Part shown: positions 18,403-26,915 of the stretch, piece by piece
How the letters are laid out: the number at the start of each line of letters is the position of its first letter
Position numbering within the stretch: position 1 is the stretch's first letter
Origin: Candidatus Enterousia sp.
GTDB lineage: Bacteria > Pseudomonadota > Alphaproteobacteria > Rs-D84
Direction of reading: 5' to 3'
Length of the DNA: 64,000 nucleotides
NCBI GenBank assembly: GCA_045646625.1
Contig: JAZRLB010000004.1
Location: forward strand, 2,323-66,322
Notes under the pieces: generated by a model
Database searches by the model: none
The model's input: the letters and a program-made list of their open reading frames with translations, nothing else
Told to the model about the DNA's origin: nothing
Made by a program: the position numbers and the translations under genes

Positions 18403-19284
18403 TTAGATGGAACCAAAGTAATTTCTAACCCGACGGCGCAATTTGCGTGTCGGCATTAAAAACGCACCCCATTTACACCCAGGTATCATAACATTGCGAA
18501 CGAACCAGTTGTTCGGTATTCTGCGTTCAGACTGGCCACGCAGCCAGCGAACACCGCCGTATTTCGGATGTTCTTTGTGACGCGATATAACCTTGACCAT
18601 TGGCATTTCAACAGTGTTTACGTGCTTTAATTTACCTTCGGGGAAACCATAGGCACGACCGCACAGCAGATATTCTTTGTCGATCAAGTATGCGTTCAAA
18701 TGAGATTCATCGTCAACACGCGCAACAATGTTATTAGCCAAATCTATTTCGATGTTCTTTTTCAATTTTCTGCACATTTTCAAGAACGCTTCTGATGTGC
18801 CGCCATTGAATGCGCCACAAACATAGTGCTTGCCCTTGCCATATGGCACAAATGCAGTTGATTCGGGGCGACGTTCATAACCGAAACTGTCTGGATTGCC
18901 CGCAAAGACATCGCCACTGCGACCAGGATGACTGCCTGCAACAAGCCCATCATGCCATTCGCACGGTGTAATTTCAGATAAATCCACTGGGTTTACGAAC
19001 TGCATATTCGCGTTAAAAAAGTAGATATAGTCAAAATCTTTTAATTCCTTTTCACGCTGAAGGAACATATCAAAGCGCAGCAATGTGTCATATGGCCAAC
19101 CCTTTTTCTGGGCAGGTGTAATGTGTACGTTTGGTGCGTCCGAGTGGTCAAAATTTTCATTGTCGGTCCAAATAAAGTACTGCTTTTCACAAGGGCCTAG
19201 ATATTTTTCACAAGATTCATAAAAATCTTTCCAAAAAGAAATATATCGCCCCAGTGCAATGTATAAAATGGCAACTTTTTTCAT
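18403..19284 (-). CDS. glycosyltransferase family 6 (histo-blood-group A/B transferase-like), bacterial NXN variant
   Basis: DYIYFFNANMQF (NXN at the DXD position), YERRPESTAFVP, CGAFNGG, DDESHLNAYL all align with conserved GT6 blocks. Confidence 0.8.
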   Translation of the reverse strand: MKKVAILYIALGRYISFWKDFYESCEKYLGPCEKQYFIWTDNENFDHSDAPNVHITPAQKKGWPYDTLLRFDMFLQREKELKDFDYIYFFNANMQFVNPVDLSEITPCEWHDGLVAGSHPGRSGDVFAGNPDSFGYERRPESTAFVPYGKGKHYVCGAFNGGTSEAFLKMCRKLKKNIEIDLANNIVARVDDESHLNAYLIDKEYLLCGRAYGFPEGKLKHVNTVEMPMVKVISRHKEHPKYGGVRWLRGQSERRIPNNWFVRNVMIPGCKWGAFLMPTRKLRRRVRNYFGSI

Positions 19285-19568
19285 AAAAAACCCCTATATT
19301 TTGCAGCATAAGAATCGGGAAGTTCGACAAGACAGATAACCTTGACCTTGTGGTTTTGGGATACATAGATTACACCCGTTGCGTAGCCACAACCGCCCGT
19401 CTGTTATGTCGGGACAGTTAGTCAAAACAATTAAGTGTTAGTTATCTGGGTTATCGACGCCCAACTGTTAACTGACACGAATATGATATCGGAATATTTT
19501 CATAAACGCAATCATATATTCCTGAAATACGCTTGAATGGTTTTTCAATTTTTGCTATAATCCATTCT

Positions 19569-20738
19569 ATGAAAATCACCCGCAGAAATCTTTTGAAAAT
19601 TACAGGTGTATCAATTTTGGCGGCGGCGACATTGCCGCGCGTGGCATTTGCGGCACGAAATTCACTGAAATCACTGCGCACAGGCGTTCAACCAGGCGAC
19701 AAAACCAGACTGGTGATTGAAACGACGTCACGTCCATCATATTCGTTGGCGTATCCAAATGGGCAACTGGTGATTAATATCGCAAACACCGCTGCAAACA
19801 CCACGGTGACGGCAAATTTGGCGGCGGGTGGCCTGGTCAAATCTATTGCCCAGGCACAAAATGGCGACAGTTTACAAATCATCGCAAATTTAAAGCAGTC
19901 CATCGCACAGATTCCAAAGTCATCAATTATGATTCTGGAACCAAATGGTGACAATGATTACCGTTTGGTGCTGGATTTTGTGGCGGGCACAACAGGTTCA
20001 TCCAAAAAGGAAACGTACACAACCACTTCGGCCGCCACAACAACCGCGGTGACGGCAGCAAGAAAATATGTCATTGTCATTGATGCAGGCCACGGCGGCA
20101 AGGATCCAGGATGTATCGGCAAGGGCGGGACACGCGAAAAAGATGTCGTACTGTCGGTGGCAAAAAAACTGAAAAACAAATTGGATGCAAATGGATTTAA
20201 GACACACCTGACACGCAGTGGGGATACATATCTGAAATTGGCAGAACGTGCCGCAATCGCAGAAAAACGTAAGGCAGATTTGTTTATATCACTGCATGCG
20301 AATGCGAACCCCAGCCGAAAAATGAAGGGCTTTTCGATTTATACCCTGTCAGAAAAGGCGTCCGACGAAGAAGCAAAAAAGCTGGCCGAAGCAGAAAATG
20401 CCGCAGATAAAATCGGGGTCGAAGGTTTTACACAATTTGAAGAAAACATCCGAATTGCGCTGTCATCCCTGCAGCAACATGCGGTCGCAGAAATGAGCGA
20501 AGAATACGCTACGGGATGCGCTAAGTCATTCAAACGTGCCGACATTGAACAACAGCCAGGCCCAGACGTACGTCACGCACCATTCGCGGTATTACGTTCC
20601 ACTGTACCAGGGGCACTGTTGGAACTGGGGCATCTGTCAAATGCGAACGAAGAAAAATTATTAAAATCAGGTAAGCATCAGGATAAACTGGTGGCGGCAA
20701 TTGTAAAATCTGTGAAAAATTATAATTTTGAAGTATAG
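19569..20738 (+). CDS. amiC: N-acetylmuramoyl-L-alanine amidase (AMIN + Amidase_3 domains), Tat-type signal
   Basis: TRRNLLK twin-Arg signal; AMIN-like beta region; IVIDAGHGGKDPG...LFISLHANA catalytic Zn-binding motifs. Confidence 0.85.
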   Translation: MKITRRNLLKITGVSILAAATLPRVAFAARNSLKSLRTGVQPGDKTRLVIETTSRPSYSLAYPNGQLVINIANTAANTTVTANLAAGGLVKSIAQAQNGDSLQIIANLKQSIAQIPKSSIMILEPNGDNDYRLVLDFVAGTTGSSKKETYTTTSAATTTAVTAARKYVIVIDAGHGGKDPGCIGKGGTREKDVVLSVAKKLKNKLDANGFKTHLTRSGDTYLKLAERAAIAEKRKADLFISLHANANPSRKMKGFSIYTLSEKASDEEAKKLAEAENAADKIGVEGFTQFEENIRIALSSLQQHAVAEMSEEYATGCAKSFKRADIEQQPGPDVRHAPFAVLRSTVPGALLELGHLSNANEEKLLKSGKHQDKLVAAIVKSVKNYNFEV

Positions 20739-20802
20739 CGACCATTGACAACTGCATATTTTTTCTTAAATAACTATATAGTTATGTGCAGGGAATTTTG
20801 TA

Positions 20803-22482
20803 ATGGAGTTAAATGGTATTTATAAATATTTGCGAACCTCGGCGGCCCTTTTAGATAAGACGCTGGTCAAGATTGTGCATAAAAATTGTGTCCAGCTTTA
20901 TAAGACAGCGCTGAACAACAAAGATGAAACCATTGCGAATAACCTGGACGCAATGTACTACAGCGAATTATATGCGGCGGCCCGTAGTTCCGAGCCGGAA
21001 ATTATGCAACCATTAATGCAACGGCGCGCATATGAAATATATTCCAAACTGAAACAAAACAATGAATTTAATCAGATTGAAAAACTGATAAAAAGATATC
21101 CATACCAACTGCTTGTTGGGGCACAACGGGCACGAGATACCGCATGTGCAAAGTTAATATTAGATTTTTATGCATACGAAACGTATAAGACGGCACGGGA
21201 CACAGAAAACTATACGACTATGTCAAACGCCGCCGCACAGGCACACACACAGATTTATGTTACGGCCTTGGCAAAGAACGACCAGGATATATTGGAAAGC
21301 ATTTTATCGGGATATGCATATGACATTTATAAACAGCTAATTAGCACAAATAATGAAGAAGCGCTGAAATATCTGGAAGACAATTATGCTGTTGATATAT
21401 TTAATATAGCCAATCGACGTCTGGATTCCAAGACTGTGAATCTACTGGTATCAAAAAAGACTTATCAAATATTTATTAATTTAATGAATACAGATAATCT
21501 GATGGCTGGACGAATTGCGCGCGAATACCATACAAAACTGTATCTGGATGCAAAAACAATAGGGAATTGCGCGGCAATACAAACCGTTATAGACCTGCAC
21601 GCGTATGCTATTTATTCAGATTTGACAAAAATTGGCAATAAAACGGTTGCCAACGAATTTAAAGAACAATATTTTATACAAATATATGAAACAGCCGTTG
21701 CCAATGGCGCAATCAATATTCGTGATGATATGTTAAGTGCATACGGATATAAAATATATTTATACCTGGTGAGCAAAGCTGGCACAGACGCAAATATTGT
21801 CCTGGGGCACTGTTCGTCGGAATTTTGGGGACAGGTGTATCTGGATGCAAAAAAGGCAAGGAATACAAAGATAATTGGTACGTTAAGCCGTGCGCACGCC
21901 TATGATATTTTTATGGGACTAAGGGCCCTGGGGCAACCGGACTCGGCAGATGATTTCAGAAAAAAATATTTTATACTGATATATCTGTGGGCAATCGAAC
22001 GCAGGGACAAATCAATCCAACACGAAATGCTGAGCCTGTATCCATATCAGATTTATTCGTTTGCAATCAAAGAAAAATTAGAGTCTGTTGCAAGAATTAT
22101 AGAACAGGCCGCAGGACCACTGTGTTATGACATATATAAATCTGCGATAAAAGCCAACGACCAGGCGGCTATAAAGCAAATCACCAGATATAAGAACGAA
22201 ATTGAAAAAGCGGCTTTGTCGCACGGCGACGTGGATATTTTGCGCACAATAAGAACACGATTCCAGTCAAGTCTGAATATTGCGGCCATCGGTAAAGAAT
22301 CGCGTGCAATGCGCGACGCCGAGCCTGCGGCCCCAAAACAGGACGAAGAAACTGTTGTTCCAAAGGATTTGGATGATTATATTGGATGGATAAGTAAGCC
22401 AGACCCAAGGTATACAATGGAGAAGATACCCGGCCAAAAAGGCGCTCAAAACTACCCCGATCATCATGATAACTGGGATTAA
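20803..22482 (+). CDS. hypothetical protein built of about 14 tandem 18-residue aromatic repeats (Y[AGP]Y.IY..L / [YF]..IY..A)
   Basis: Recurrent YAYDIY, YAYETY, HAYAIY, YGYKIY, YPYQIY, CYDIY motifs at about 18-aa spacing; no signal peptide. Confidence 0.6.
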   Translation: MELNGIYKYLRTSAALLDKTLVKIVHKNCVQLYKTALNNKDETIANNLDAMYYSELYAAARSSEPEIMQPLMQRRAYEIYSKLKQNNEFNQIEKLIKRYPYQLLVGAQRARDTACAKLILDFYAYETYKTARDTENYTTMSNAAAQAHTQIYVTALAKNDQDILESILSGYAYDIYKQLISTNNEEALKYLEDNYAVDIFNIANRRLDSKTVNLLVSKKTYQIFINLMNTDNLMAGRIAREYHTKLYLDAKTIGNCAAIQTVIDLHAYAIYSDLTKIGNKTVANEFKEQYFIQIYETAVANGAINIRDDMLSAYGYKIYLYLVSKAGTDANIVLGHCSSEFWGQVYLDAKKARNTKIIGTLSRAHAYDIFMGLRALGQPDSADDFRKKYFILIYLWAIERRDKSIQHEMLSLYPYQIYSFAIKEKLESVARIIEQAAGPLCYDIYKSAIKANDQAAIKQITRYKNEIEKAALSHGDVDILRTIRTRFQSSLNIAAIGKESRAMRDAEPAAPKQDEETVVPKDLDDYIGWISKPDPRYTMEKIPGQKGAQNYPDHHDNWD

Positions 22483-22501
22483 TTAGCGGAGGATAGATAA
22501 T

Positions 22502-23830
22502 ATGTCGGAATTCGTAGCAGGTATAGATTTTGGAACCAGTAATTCAACCGTCACCATCGTCGGGCCAGATGGCGTGCCACAGATGATTATGCTGGAACCG
22601 GACAGTTTTACCATGCCGTCGGTAATGTTCTTTGAAACAGACAAACAAACAGATGAAATAACCGCATATTTTGGTACGGCGGCTGAACAGATGAATGCAA
22701 AATATCCGACCGACGGCCGAATGATGCGCGCCATAAAAAGTATTCTGGGAACAGATTTGACACAACAAAACGCCACAATTGGGTTCAAGAAAAAGCCTTA
22801 TCTGGAAATTATTCGTGACTTTTTGTTTGAAATAAAACTGGCTGCGGATATCAAGGCGGGCGAAAATATTGATTCTGTGGTTTTGGGGCGCCCCGTGCAT
22901 TTTACAAAAACACCCAGCGCGGAATCAGATAAACTGGCCGAAGATGCGCTTAGGCTAATTGCAGAAAACCTGGGATTTAAAAATATCGCGTTCCAATATG
23001 AACCTATCGCGGCTGCGTTCGCACACGAACAAAAACTGAAAATTGGCGAAGAAAAATTAACGGTTATTATCGACATTGGCGGTGGTACGTCGGATATTTC
23101 AATAGTAAGATTGTCAGGTGACCGAAAAAATATGCTTGACCGCAGCAAAGATATACTGTCGAATTCAGGCGTCAGGATTGGGGGACGTGATTTTGACAAA
23201 GCGCTGTCCAAGGGGGCGTTTATGCCGCACTTTGGTCAAGGAGGACAATCCCAAAAGCCTGAAAAAAAATTCTTGCGAAATAAAAAAATACTGTCACCTA
23301 TTCCTGTTGAACCCTTTGATAACCTGTCCACCACACACAATATTGTGAAATTGTACGACGGAAAAACACTGAGGTTGATTGATGCCCTGATACCGCATGA
23401 GTGCGAACCAAAACGATTACATCGTATGCGCGAGGTTATTGTTAGACAATTAGGACATACACATTTGGCCTATGTCGAGAAATCTAAGATACAATTAAGC
23501 GATAAAAAAAGCATCACTATGAAGTTAGACTATCTGACCGATAAGCCCAAAGTGACAATTAAGCGCGATGAATTTGAAGGATTTATTGAAAAAGATATAA
23601 AATCAATTAAAACTAAAATAAACGAAGCCCTCAAAAATGCAGGGGTGACATCTGCTGATATCGAACTGGTGGTGCTGACAGGCGGCTCAAGCCAAATCCC
23701 GTGTGTAATTGATACCACACGCAAAATGTTCCCCAACGCCGAAATGTCATCAAGCAATGTGATGACGTCCGTAGGGCTGGGGTTGGCATATGATGCAAAA
23801 CGACGCAAAAACCAGAACAATTGGCAGTAA
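22502..23830 (+). CDS. yegD: Hsp70-family actin-like ATPase, YegD-like (no substrate-binding domain)
   Basis: IDFGTSNS phosphate-1, AFQYEPIAAA, VIIDIGGGTSDISIV phosphate-2, LTGGSSQIP adenosine motif; 442 aa. Confidence 0.75.
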   Translation: MSEFVAGIDFGTSNSTVTIVGPDGVPQMIMLEPDSFTMPSVMFFETDKQTDEITAYFGTAAEQMNAKYPTDGRMMRAIKSILGTDLTQQNATIGFKKKPYLEIIRDFLFEIKLAADIKAGENIDSVVLGRPVHFTKTPSAESDKLAEDALRLIAENLGFKNIAFQYEPIAAAFAHEQKLKIGEEKLTVIIDIGGGTSDISIVRLSGDRKNMLDRSKDILSNSGVRIGGRDFDKALSKGAFMPHFGQGGQSQKPEKKFLRNKKILSPIPVEPFDNLSTTHNIVKLYDGKTLRLIDALIPHECEPKRLHRMREVIVRQLGHTHLAYVEKSKIQLSDKKSITMKLDYLTDKPKVTIKRDEFEGFIEKDIKSIKTKINEALKNAGVTSADIELVVLTGGSSQIPCVIDTTRKMFPNAEMSSSNVMTSVGLGLAYDAKRRKNQNNWQ

Positions 23831-23893
23831 AATTTTGGGTGTTGCTTTTTTTTATAATATTGTTATCCTATTACCACTGTACAAAGGATTTAT

Positions 23894-24916
23894 ATGTCAG
23901 TTAAGGCAAAACGCCTGATTAAGAAAATTATCAGTTATTCAGGCATATTCTTTTTCACGTTGGCCGCGGTTATGTTGTGGTGGCAATTGCGTAATTACAG
24001 TTTATCAGATATCGCACACGCGATTCTGGACATCCCACTTCTTAATTTGACGATGGCCTGTGCGGCCTGCCTTGCTGGGTATCTGGCGCTGTCACTGTAT
24101 GATTATTTGGCGCTGAACTATGTTGGCGGCAAGGTGACGTGGTGGAAGTGGATGCTGGCGGGGATGCTGGGGTTTGCAATCAGCAATAACGCAGGTCACG
24201 CTGTTGTTAGCGGGGGCGCAATTCGATATCGACTGTATACGCGCTGGCGTATTCGTGGGGGCGATATTGTAAAAATGCTGACGATATCAGGTTTTACATA
24301 CTTCCTGGGGGCGGCGGCCATTGTGATAATCAGCTATTTTATGGTGCCGCACAGTATGTTCCAGAACTCTATCGGGGCCAGCGTCGGAATTAACGCGCTG
24401 TTTATGTTCTGTTTGGTGACACTGTTGCTGTATTTTTCTGTTGCAACCTTCTTTCACAAGAAAAGTATTAAAATTGGTGAAATAAAATTTCAAATCCCAT
24501 CCGTTAAAATGGCATTTACGCAGACAATTTTGGGAATCACAGACAGTGTGCTGGCTGGATTGGTGCTGTACTGCTGTTTAACACCCTTTGTGGAAATTCC
24601 GTTTGTCGTGTTTATGGGCCTGTTTGCAATCGCACAATCAACGGGTGTTTTCAGCCAGGTTCCAGGTGGAATCGGCGTTTTTGAAACAGTATTTTTGGTC
24701 GCCCTGCCCGACACTGTTGACAAGGCAAATATTTTTGGCGCACTGTTAGCATATCGTATAATTTATTATGTGCTGCCGCTGATTGGTATGGGCGGGTTAT
24801 TTTTCGTTTATGAAAGATGGCTGCGGTCGCGTATGAAAAGATGGCTGAACGAAGCCAAAGAAAAAATCCCAGCCAAAATCAAAAGCATAAAATCTGAGAT
24901 AAAAATCAGAAAATAA
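23894..24916 (+). CDS. UPF0104 / lysyl-phosphatidylglycerol-synthase-TM-like (flippase-like) membrane protein
   Basis: 8 predicted TM helices; conserved GGAIRYRLY motif of the MprF flippase-like domain. Confidence 0.6.
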   Translation: MSVKAKRLIKKIISYSGIFFFTLAAVMLWWQLRNYSLSDIAHAILDIPLLNLTMACAACLAGYLALSLYDYLALNYVGGKVTWWKWMLAGMLGFAISNNAGHAVVSGGAIRYRLYTRWRIRGGDIVKMLTISGFTYFLGAAAIVIISYFMVPHSMFQNSIGASVGINALFMFCLVTLLLYFSVATFFHKKSIKIGEIKFQIPSVKMAFTQTILGITDSVLAGLVLYCCLTPFVEIPFVVFMGLFAIAQSTGVFSQVPGGIGVFETVFLVALPDTVDKANIFGALLAYRIIYYVLPLIGMGGLFFVYERWLRSRMKRWLNEAKEKIPAKIKSIKSEIKIRK

Positions 24917-25121
24917 ATACCTTGATAACCCTGTATGGCCGTGCTAAAATGATGTTTGTGTATGACATGGGGTTATAAGTAAGTGTTTGTATTATCACTG
25001 TTTTCAACAATTCGAATGGTGCTGATGGTTATCGTGGCACAATCCCTTGGCATGGGCTTGGACGCCCCACAGGGACGGATTGTCGCCATCGCATACAACG
25101 CCAAAACAAAAGGATTACAAA

Positions 25122-26915
25122 ATGTCAAAAAAAATATATGTGGATGCAGTCCACCCGGAGGAAACACGTGTTGTTGTAGTTGATACCGCAACAAATCGCG
25201 TTTCAGACTTTGACGTTGAAACAACAACAAAACCACAAATCAAAGGCAACATATATCTGGCCAAGGTTATTCGTGTTGAACCGTCTTTGCAGGCTGCATT
25301 CGTAGATTATGGAACAGGCAAAAATGGATTTTTGCCATTCTCGGAAATCCATCCGGATTACTATCAGGTGACAGCAGAACAGAAAAAGAAACTGCTGGAA
25401 TTGGCGCACGCCAATATCGTTGACGATGACGACGATCCAAATGACGAAGAGGATGAAGTCGCAGAATACGACGATCACAGCGCAGGCGAAGACAATAAAG
25501 AATTTGCAAAACGTGCACGTGAATTCAAAATTCAGGACGTAATTAAACCTAAACAAATCCTGTTGGTTCAGGGCGTCAAGGAAGAACGTGGGCAAAAAGG
25601 TGCCTCTATGACAACATACTTGTCATTGGCGGGTCGTTTTGCGGTACTAATGCCAAATTCACGCAAACGCAACAGTTATGGTATTTCCAAGAAAATTTCA
25701 GACAAATCAGAACGCGCACGTCTGCGCGAAGTTCTGCACGGGCTGAAAATTCCAAAGGGTATGACCGTTGTTCTGCGCACAGCAGCAATGGGGGCAACAC
25801 CTGCGGAAATTGCAGCAGACTATGATTATCTGGTTAATTTGTGGAATGAAATTCGCAAGACTACATTGGCATCAGTTGCACCGGTCACAATTCATACAGA
25901 AGATTCTTTGTTGCGTCGCGTAGTTCGTGATTTCCTGAGTGATAAAGAAGACGTCTTGATTATTCAGGGCGAAGAAGCATTCGATGCCGCAAAACAATAT
26001 TTTGTTCAAATGTATGGTAAGGCACCACGCAAACAGTTGGTGCACTATAAAGACGCAGGCGTGCCACTGATGGTCAAAGCGGGCGTTGAAAAACAACTAG
26101 AAGGTTTGCACGGACCATATGTCACATTGCCATCTGGGGGGTCTTTGGTTATAAACCAGACCGAAGCAATGGTGACAATTGACGTGAACTCTTCACGCGC
26201 AATCAAGGAAAAAGATATCGAACAGACCGCGCTGAATACCAATTTAGAAGCAGCCGAGGAAATTGCACTGCAATTGCGTTTACGCGACCTGGCAGGTATT
26301 GTCGCGATTGACTTTATCGATATGGAAGAAGAAAAAAACAACCGCAAGCTGGAAATGAAAATGCGCGAAGTGATGAAACGCGACCGCGCCCGTACCCAAG
26401 TTGCAAAAATTAATAACTTTGGCGTATTGATGCTGTCACGTCAGCGTCTGCGCAGCAGTTTTATGGAATCATCATATGTGGCGTGCCCACACTGTGTGGG
26501 TGCGGGTGTTGTGCCTTCTATTCAGACGGCGGCAATTATCTTGTTCCGTCATTTGCAGGAAAAATTGTTGGCCAAGGCGGCACAGAAAATTATTATGACC
26601 GTACCAACAGATGTCGCAATCTATCTGTTAAATCATAAACGCGCAGAGCTGGCTGAAATGGAAGCGAAGTTCGAAACAGAAATTGTGATTGTTGGTGATG
26701 ACAGCCTGATGAATATAGATCAATATTCTATTCAACGTGTCGCGCCAGAACAGAACAAGACCGAAGAACTGTTGGGGGCATATGCACCGTCAACAGATGC
26801 GAAGCGAAAAAATGCCCAACATATTGATGCAAAAAAGACAACAATTAATGCACAACGTCGCAAACGTAAAAAACAGCAAAAAAAGAAGTCTTTTTGGCAG
26901 AAGTTGGTCAGTTAG
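25122..26915 (+). CDS. ribonuclease E/G family endoribonuclease (compact, acidic insertion, basic C-tail)
   Basis: S1 domain NIYLAKVIRVEPSLQAAFVDYG; DNase-I-like/Zn-link motifs incl. CPHCVGAGV; start at MSKKIYVD (ATG 25122). Confidence 0.85.
   Translation: MSKKIYVDAVHPEETRVVVVDTATNRVSDFDVETTTKPQIKGNIYLAKVIRVEPSLQAAFVDYGTGKNGFLPFSEIHPDYYQVTAEQKKKLLELAHANIVDDDDDPNDEEDEVAEYDDHSAGEDNKEFAKRAREFKIQDVIKPKQILLVQGVKEERGQKGASMTTYLSLAGRFAVLMPNSRKRNSYGISKKISDKSERARLREVLHGLKIPKGMTVVLRTAAMGATPAEIAADYDYLVNLWNEIRKTTLASVAPVTIHTEDSLLRRVVRDFLSDKEDVLIIQGEEAFDAAKQYFVQMYGKAPRKQLVHYKDAGVPLMVKAGVEKQLEGLHGPYVTLPSGGSLVINQTEAMVTIDVNSSRAIKEKDIEQTALNTNLEAAEEIALQLRLRDLAGIVAIDFIDMEEEKNNRKLEMKMREVMKRDRARTQVAKINNFGVLMLSRQRLRSSFMESSYVACPHCVGAGVVPSIQTAAIILFRHLQEKLLAKAAQKIIMTVPTDVAIYLLNHKRAELAEMEAKFETEIVIVGDDSLMNIDQYSIQRVAPEQNKTEELLGAYAPSTDAKRKNAQHIDAKKTTINAQRRKRKKQQKKKSFWQKLVS

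Follow-up and report, generated by a model that had tools for sequence, protein, structure and literature searches.

A YegD-type Hsp70 ATPase paired with a tyrosine-rich 24-residue repeat protein in Candidatus Enterousia

Background

Helical-repeat proteins serve as cofactors of Hsp70: the TPR proteins Hop and CHIP bind the C-terminal EEVD of the chaperone, and the ARM-repeat exchange factors HspBP1 and Fes1 act on its nucleotide-binding domain (NBD). The YegD-type Hsp70s, which lack a substrate-binding domain (SBD), range from Escherichia coli to bacteria with genomes of less than 1 Mb. A 2026 review describes YegD as an NBD that lacks the linker, the basket and the lid, with neither a function nor a partner assigned (PMC13580251). 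Hsp70-like ATPases also occur together with helical repeats, on the same polypeptide or as products of separate genes, in the CoCoNuT type III systems, which are McrBC-derived and in which CnuD/CnuCD combine Hsp70-like NBD and SBD regions with HEAT-like repeats (PMC11090510). Here we describe a locus with a YegD-type gene in a 64,000-nucleotide stretch of DNA (hereafter the window; contig JAZRLB010000004.1, positions 2,323 to 66,322), which derives from a gut alphaproteobacterium that is Candidatus Enterousia-like and belongs to the uncultured order Rs-D84. The genomes of its members are smaller than approximately 1 Mb (PMC12306168).

The locus is composed of three co-oriented ORFs of 559, 442 and 340 aa, separated by 19 and 63 nt. 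The first encodes a tyrosine-rich helical-repeat protein, labelled REP in this work, the second a YegD-type ATPase and the third an MprF-like (UPF0104) membrane protein. An earlier annotation of the window (the original prediction), whose coordinates for these ORFs were reproduced, had read them as a fixed three-gene operon for a membrane-associated machine. The present analysis compares homologues, gene neighbourhoods and upstream regions across Rs-D84 (Ca. Enterousia) and metagenome loci. It points to two independent transcription units, and we give a probability of roughly 0.45 to the reading that these are separate and that REP, as a lineage-specific alpha-solenoid, acts as partner or adaptor to the YegD ATPase. 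The first unit would be a bicistronic REP-YegD operon with its own promoter and the second would consist of the MprF-flippase-like gene and RNase E/G. The positions of all features are collected in Table 1.

Conservation of the REP-YegD pair

The homologues of REP fall into four lineages in total and are 24 to 88% identical to the window protein. A k-mer/HMMER search of 5.8 billion proteins identified P0001 (88%) and P0002 (57%), and an exhaustive phmmer search of 1.84 billion cluster representatives, in which two clusters matched in all, added P0123 (30%) as the sole further homologue. Another was found in locus L084 as an unannotated gene encoding 689 aa upstream of the YegD homologue P0008; its product exhibits homology with REP by BLASTP (E 4e-28, 24% identity) and has the same period of 24 residues. 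No further members were found in JGI metagenome contigs, and REP is absent from IMG/VR.

A YegD-like gene directly follows REP in all four lineages, with gaps of 19, 15, 23 and 26 nt, which upholds the predicted linkage of a repeat protein to a YegD-type ATPase. The pair occurs in two distinct genomic contexts. Both flanks are different in loci L080–L083, where the gene order is Hexapep, REP, YegD and MGMT and no UPF0104 gene is present. A sequence matching a promoter, TTGACA-N16-TA(A/T)ATA, is located at the same position 5' of REP in five of five loci, including L080 with its different upstream gene. The REP-YegD gap holds a ribosome-binding site only (GGAGGA in the window) and is too short for a promoter. 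REP and YegD thus form a conserved unit, which from this arrangement we infer to be co-transcribed as a bicistronic message.

YegD-like genes that are not accompanied by REP are solitary and stand in unrelated contexts (L004, L085, L086). Among 80 YegD-like metagenome loci that are more distant, a neighbour survey identified no shared neighbour of YegD, the biggest cluster being present in 7 of the 80, and no 24-periodic repeat protein beside any of these genes. The distribution of the REP-YegD pair is very narrow and covers one subclade of an uncultured gut genus.

The REP repeat protein

The REP gene product is built from tandem repeats with a period of 24 residues, as seen from the BLOSUM autocorrelation, which has its peaks at lags of 24 and 48, and from the spacing of the motif anchors, which is exactly 24 in 15 of 19 intervals. 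The consensus of the repeat is [AIL]xx[LI]LxxYxYx[IL]Yxx[AL]xxx[NG][DN]xx[IA]. An 18-residue aromatic repeat had been predicted for this protein; the recurring Y-x-I-Y motif on which this rested is present, and the period has to be corrected from 18 to 24. The AlphaFold2 (AF2) model of REP, which was computed from an input of only 3 sequences (mean pLDDT 72.7, pTM 0.43), contains approximately 28 helices. These are approximately 20 residues long, are separated by turns of 3 residues and stack as a solenoid with one helix per repeat. Foldseek analysis of the model provided weak matches to TPR proteins and designed solenoids, with TM-scores no higher than 0.24.

Following the repeats is an acidic tail (pI 4.8) with pLDDT values below 50 over residues 489–521 and 532–559, a short helix at residues 523–530 (DLDDYIGW) and the terminal residues ...HHDNWD. 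This tail varies among the homologues, which end in NNWD, NNWD, HENN or YERN. An ending of the form NW[DQ] common to REP and YegD was considered and discarded, since it fails for REP in L080 and L084; only the Trp tail of YegD was retained.

Scans of REP against Pfam, NCBIfam, PADLOC and PHROG did not assign it to any family, and a Pfam search with four REP members at E ≤ 10 returned only scattered noise. REP also gave no profile match to TPR, HEAT or ARM repeats, whose periods of 34, about 40 and about 42 aa differ from the 24 found here. Judged by these profile scans, REP is a repeat family new to description, with a 24-residue unit and a Y-x-Y-x-I-Y signature. The homologues are 553 to 689 aa in length and vary in repeat number. 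The dN/dS of 0.17 relative to locus L001, the closest relative, indicates that REP is a genuine coding gene; this value, along with an ORF that is kept in four lineages, ruled out the possibility that REP is not a real gene. No transmembrane (TM) segments were predicted in either REP or YegD.

The YegD-type ATPase

The product of the second gene matches the Pfam HSP70 family (E 8e-26), and its best NCBIfam match is PRK11678 (YegD) with 235.7 bits, under the equivalog cut-off of 331 bits; on these scores it is YegD-like and not a certified equivalog. It aligns colinearly from end to end with the 450-aa YegD of E. coli (26% identity, E 1e-49). The AF2 model (pLDDT 91.9) superposes on the NBDs of DnaK and Hsc70 with nothing left for an SBD, and the same NBDs were the top Foldseek matches of the model (target-normalised TM 0.71–0.78). 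The protein terminates 8 residues past the last NBD helix and has no interdomain linker or SBD. Residues that are invariant in 46 YegD homologues include D9, G11, T12, K79, E167, D191, G193–G195, T196 and G394–G395, by which the catalytic and nucleotide-binding motifs are judged to be intact. The original prediction of a truncated, YegD-type Hsp70 ATPase with intact phosphate-1, phosphate-2 and adenosine motifs and no SBD is borne out by these matches, the invariant residues and the structural superposition.

These features of fold, motifs and missing linker and SBD are all shared with E. coli YegD. Differences from the E. coli protein include the N-terminal 45 residues, which lie outside the PRK11678 profile match, and the C-terminal ...W-x tail, which belongs to the REP-linked clade. 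The E. coli gene is flanked by alkA and yegI and has no REP or UPF0104 neighbour. The six REP-linked YegD proteins (P0003–P0008) head the list of matches with at least 54% identity, versus at most 48% for all others. A penultimate Trp is present in all six, with the C-termini NNWQ, DNWQ, GDWQ, NSWN, GFWK and NKWD, versus one of 114 other listed YegD-like proteins (P0029, ...FLWL). An exact look-up of the window YegD and P0003 proteins returned no record.

In PADLOC, YegD gave a weak partial match (E 4e-11) with the candidate system PDC-M61B that covers the Hsp70 phosphate-2 region only, and REP and the third gene gave none. YegD-like genes occur almost universally, as single genes, in these genomes of less than 1 Mb. 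At L100 (3702-4661, minus strand) and three other loci among the 80 distant ones, a CbpA-like J-domain protein with an HPD motif, identified by eye, and a small CbpM-like protein adjoin the YegD-like gene on the opposite strand. The J-domain neighbour could be relevant to the function of YegD; alternatively, it may represent synteny inside one lineage.

Evolutionary rates at the locus

Comparison with L001 gave dN values of 0.32 for REP and 0.17 for YegD, versus 0.004–0.044 for five flanking genes (a GT6 glycosyltransferase gene and those for AmiC, the MprF-like protein, RNase E/G and PriA). The corresponding dN/dS values are 0.17, 0.12 and 0.007–0.057. REP and YegD evolve 4 to 80 times faster than their flanks, yet they are under purifying selection. 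REP is 24–57% identical where AmiC is 83–93% identical; relative to L084, the identities are 24% for REP, approximately 55% for YegD and 83% for AmiC. Between the window (20803-22482) and L002 (4214-5890), REP exhibits a dN/dS of 0.41 and a dS of 0.13, versus a dS of 0.52 for the adjacent amiC. This four-fold lower dS suggests a recent recombinational exchange of the REP allele or cassette. By its substitution rates, the REP-YegD pair is a hypervariable island within conserved synteny, a behaviour unlike that of the third gene.

The MprF-like gene and RNase E/G

The third gene product scores 55.5 bits with PF03706 (cut-off 33.4) and matches positions 9–317 of the 841-position model for bifunctional MprF (187.9 bits versus a cut-off of 600). 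It also exhibits homology with the TM domain of the MprF structures 6lvf and 7duw (E 1.5e-27), in which its GGAIRYRLY motif aligns with SAGAIRYRAY. On this point the original prediction, which had named GGAIRYRLY as the motif of the MprF flippase-like (UPF0104) domain, proved accurate. The likeness to MprF, a lysyl-phosphatidylglycerol synthase/flippase, covers the N-terminal TM flippase domain with its GAIRYR motif, and flipping activity is predicted only. The protein of 340 aa does not have the C-terminal aminoacyl-phosphatidylglycerol synthase domain of MprF.

The MprF-like protein is strongly conserved across the order, so that 75 Rs-D84 loci could be gathered from species-representative genomes; 70 of these extend upstream for 1.5 kb or more, and 73 have sufficient sequence on the downstream side. 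Identities range from 69 to 97%. Neither REP nor YegD is found beside the MprF-like gene in any of the 70 loci with upstream sequence, and the three-gene order is shared with L001 and is not conserved beyond it. The conserved genomic partner of this UPF0104 gene is RNase E/G, not REP or YegD: it lies directly 3' in each of the 73 loci, at a median distance of 135 nt. The gene on the upstream side varies: 39 loci have an RNase PH-like gene that is transcribed divergently, and others, identified by eye, include ClpB-, FabI-, acetate kinase- and pyruvate kinase-like genes. Compared across genomes, the region 5' of the MprF-like gene is a slot with changing content. At L005 (6327-9890, plus strand), the gene directly upstream encodes a protein of 1187 aa with an N-terminal signal-like segment and approximately ten near-identical long tandem repeats (...GLSGRLDNIEDAEYVT.GSLDRNWFG.MLS...).

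A promoter-like element, TTGCTT-N16-TATCCT, and an AAGGA Shine-Dalgarno sequence occupy the last approximately 60 nt before the MprF-like ATG in every one of the 75 sequences (the window and 74 loci), whichever gene lies upstream. The element lies within the 63-nt gap between YegD and the MprF-like gene in the window. A consensus scan for promoters and terminators did not discriminate (28 sites versus 18.5 expected); the comparative upstream alignment was informative.

A UPF0104 gene neighbours YegD in two of the 80 distant YegD-like loci, which represent one lineage. These related high-GC contigs (L135 3852-6242 and L140 3777-6239; 62–64% GC) carry a UPF0104/MprF-TM-like gene directly upstream of the YegD-like gene. 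It is 28% identical to the third gene of the window, the order is opposite to that of the window, and this is the sole other UPF0104-YegD adjacency in the 80 loci. The gene-neighbourhood comparison proposed along with the original prediction therefore found no conserved linkage for the UPF0104 gene. Since its adjacency to the pair is not conserved and it has a promoter-like element of its own, a link to the third gene is unsupported, and with it the claims of a fixed three-gene linkage and of a membrane-associated machine that includes the MprF-like protein.

The mechanically called ORF of RNase E/G begins at TTG 25047 and encodes 622 aa. The orthologue in L001 has a called length of 597 aa, equivalent to a start at ATG 25122 (MSKKIYVDA...). 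The latter is likely the true start on this comparison, in which case the gap after the MprF-like gene is probably about 205 nt, not 130 nt. The adjacent pair of MprF-like and RNase E/G genes (window 23894-26915; L005–L078) has identities of 69–97% and 84–99%, respectively; relative to L001 these are 97% and 99%, with AmiC at 93%. We propose from the neighbourhood data that they are a housekeeping pair, conserved across the order, whose position downstream of REP-YegD is incidental. In E. coli the RNase is membrane-tethered, and it is conceivable that RNase E/G is functionally connected with a lipid-flippase-like protein.

A proposed role for REP as the partner of YegD

According to the preferred reading, REP would be a cytoplasmic alpha-solenoid of approximately 19 tyrosine-rich, single-helix repeats of 24 residues with an acidic, disordered tail. 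As YegD has no SBD, the solenoid would provide the missing client- or target-binding surface to the ATPase, and the ATPase cycle would act on whatever is bound to REP by remodelling or releasing it. The two proteins may dock through the penultimate-Trp C-terminal tail of YegD or through lobe II of the NBD, by analogy with TPR cofactors on the EEVD tail of Hsp70 or with ARM-repeat exchange factors clasping the NBD.

The comparison with the familiar TPR and ARM cofactors extends to an alpha-solenoid being paired with an Hsp70-type ATPase and, in the case of the TPR cofactors, to a short C-terminal motif of the ATPase co-occurring with the repeat partner in the REP clade. The REP unit differs in having a single helix and 24 residues, where the TPR and ARM units have 34 or about 42, and in matching no TPR, ARM or HEAT sequence; YegD differs in having neither SBD nor EEVD, and an interaction between the partners is hypothetical here. 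The CnuD protein of the CoCoNuT systems keeps its SBD, has degenerate ATPase motifs and is encoded in McrB/McrC operons (PMC11090510), whereas the second gene of the window encodes intact motifs and no SBD. No McrB-like GTPase or McrC/DUF2357 gene was found beside REP-YegD, the neighbours being AmiC, UPF0104, RNase E/G, Hexapep and MGMT. The REP-YegD pairing would be a new variation on the theme of an Hsp70 ATPase plus a helical-repeat cofactor.

Several observations weigh against this reading. The confidence of the REP model is moderate only, with its pLDDT of 72.7 from 3 sequences, and the tail is poorly conserved, with the terminal NWD missing in L084 and P0123. Only two genomic contexts are documented for the pair. 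The four REP lineages also represent one subclade of YegD, as indicated by the identity threshold given above, so the pair and the Trp tail could reflect shared ancestry and not constraint. With respect to the separation of the two units, no terminator-like hairpin is located 3' of YegD in the window, and read-through from YegD into the MprF-like gene may occur.

The point of shared ancestry leads to the alternative that REP and YegD are adjacent by descent only. In that case REP would be an unrelated structural orphan with no functional tie to the ATPase, gained a single time by the ancestor of one Enterousia subclade. An adjacency traced to a single clade is effectively a single evolutionary event and may be purely historical, and YegD works without REP in all other lineages. 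We nevertheless consider this explanation somewhat unlikely, given that the pair has outlived the rearrangement of both flanks despite extreme divergence of REP, that gaps of 15–26 nt hold the ribosome-binding site only, that the rates of both genes have accelerated in parallel and that the Trp tail is specific to the REP-linked YegD clade. A useless gene of 560–690 aa would also be expected to disappear from such strongly reduced genomes. The rate data and the varying repeat number (553–689 aa) can be taken as signs of a rapidly diversifying conflict module instead of a housekeeping chaperone pair, either for defence against phages or mobile elements or as a host- or partner-interaction factor of a gut symbiont with a reduced genome. 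The hypervariable island, the REP dN/dS of up to 0.41 at short divergence with its low dS relative to amiC and the weak PDC-M61B match of YegD would fit such a module, for which the Hsp70-like domains and HEAT-like repeats of CoCoNuT type III are a precedent (PMC11090510). That match is limited to the phosphate-2 region, however, and REP has no PADLOC or PHROGs match and is absent from IMG/VR. There is no adjacent nuclease, McrBC-like or other effector gene, and the surroundings of the pair show no defence context. The near-universal, single-gene occurrence of YegD in genomes below 1 Mb favours a core role, and repeat scaffolds are frequently fast-evolving without conflict. A conflict module is accordingly judged unlikely.

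A single operon of REP, YegD and the MprF-like gene, in which the scaffold and the ATPase act on or with the lipid flippase, is highly improbable. The co-orientation of the genes, their short gaps, the lack of a terminator-like hairpin between them, the same order in L001 and the UPF0104 gene directly upstream of YegD in the high-GC lineage are what favour it. Against these stand the 70 related loci without YegD or REP beside the MprF-like gene, the lack of a UPF0104 gene by REP-YegD in L080–L083 and in 78 of the 80 distant YegD loci, the position of E. coli yegD between alkA and yegI, the conserved promoter-like element of the MprF-like gene within the 63-nt gap and the approximately ten-fold difference in rate between REP-YegD and the third gene.

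Within the preferred reading of REP as the partner of YegD, a more specific form would have REP as a detachable, fast-evolving substrate-binding module, such that REP-YegD is a two-component chaperone or remodelling machine acting on clients or on foreign or host targets and powered by the ATP cycle of YegD, with docking through the Trp tail. This form is doubtful, and quite unlikely as a whole. If true, it would offer a first way into the function of the YegD family, which is widespread but orphan. A dedicated partner that is co-inherited, even in one clade, provides the concrete hypothesis that the ATPase acts via an external helical-repeat adaptor. The correction of the three-gene model prevents the transfer of a lipid-flippase function onto YegD during annotation and also reveals the far more strongly conserved pair of UPF0104 and RNase E/G genes.

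Features of the locus

Table 1. Positions of genes and predicted elements in the window
Feature	Position	Strand	Evidence or remark
AmiC amidase, AMIN-domain	19533-20738		upstream flank of REP
Promoter-like element of REP: TTGACA, 16 nt, TAAATA	20745..20772	+	sequence match, in register in five REP loci
REP, 559 aa, orphan family	20803..22482	+	ORF; no Pfam, NCBIfam, PADLOC or PHROG family
Approximately 19 tandem 24-residue repeats (REP residues ~21-480)	20863..22242	+	autocorrelation, anchor spacing, AF2
C-terminal tail of REP (residues 489-559), acidic, predicted disordered	22267..22479	+	AF2 pLDDT, pI
Shine-Dalgarno GGAGGA of YegD-like gene	22488..22493	+	within 19-nt gap
YegD-type Hsp70 NBD-only ATPase, 442 aa, C-terminus ...RRKNQNNWQ	22502..23830	+	Pfam, NCBIfam, AF2
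Promoter-like element of MprF-like gene: TTGCTT, 16 nt, TATCCT	23842..23869	+	kept in 75/75 sequences
Shine-Dalgarno AAGGA of MprF-like gene	23884-23888	+	
Stand-alone MprF-flippase-like (PF03706/UPF0104) polytopic membrane protein, 340 aa	23894..24916	+	outside the proposed REP-YegD unit
RNase E/G	25047..26915	+	Pfam RNase_E_G, E 1.5e-85; priA next, on opposite strand

Further upstream, the window encodes a protein of 293 aa on the minus strand (18403-19284), the L001 and L002 orthologues of which (93–94% identical) bear the Pfam domain Glyco_transf_6. This is the family of the histo-blood-group A/B transferases; to our knowledge it is uncommon among bacteria, and here it is found in a gut symbiont.

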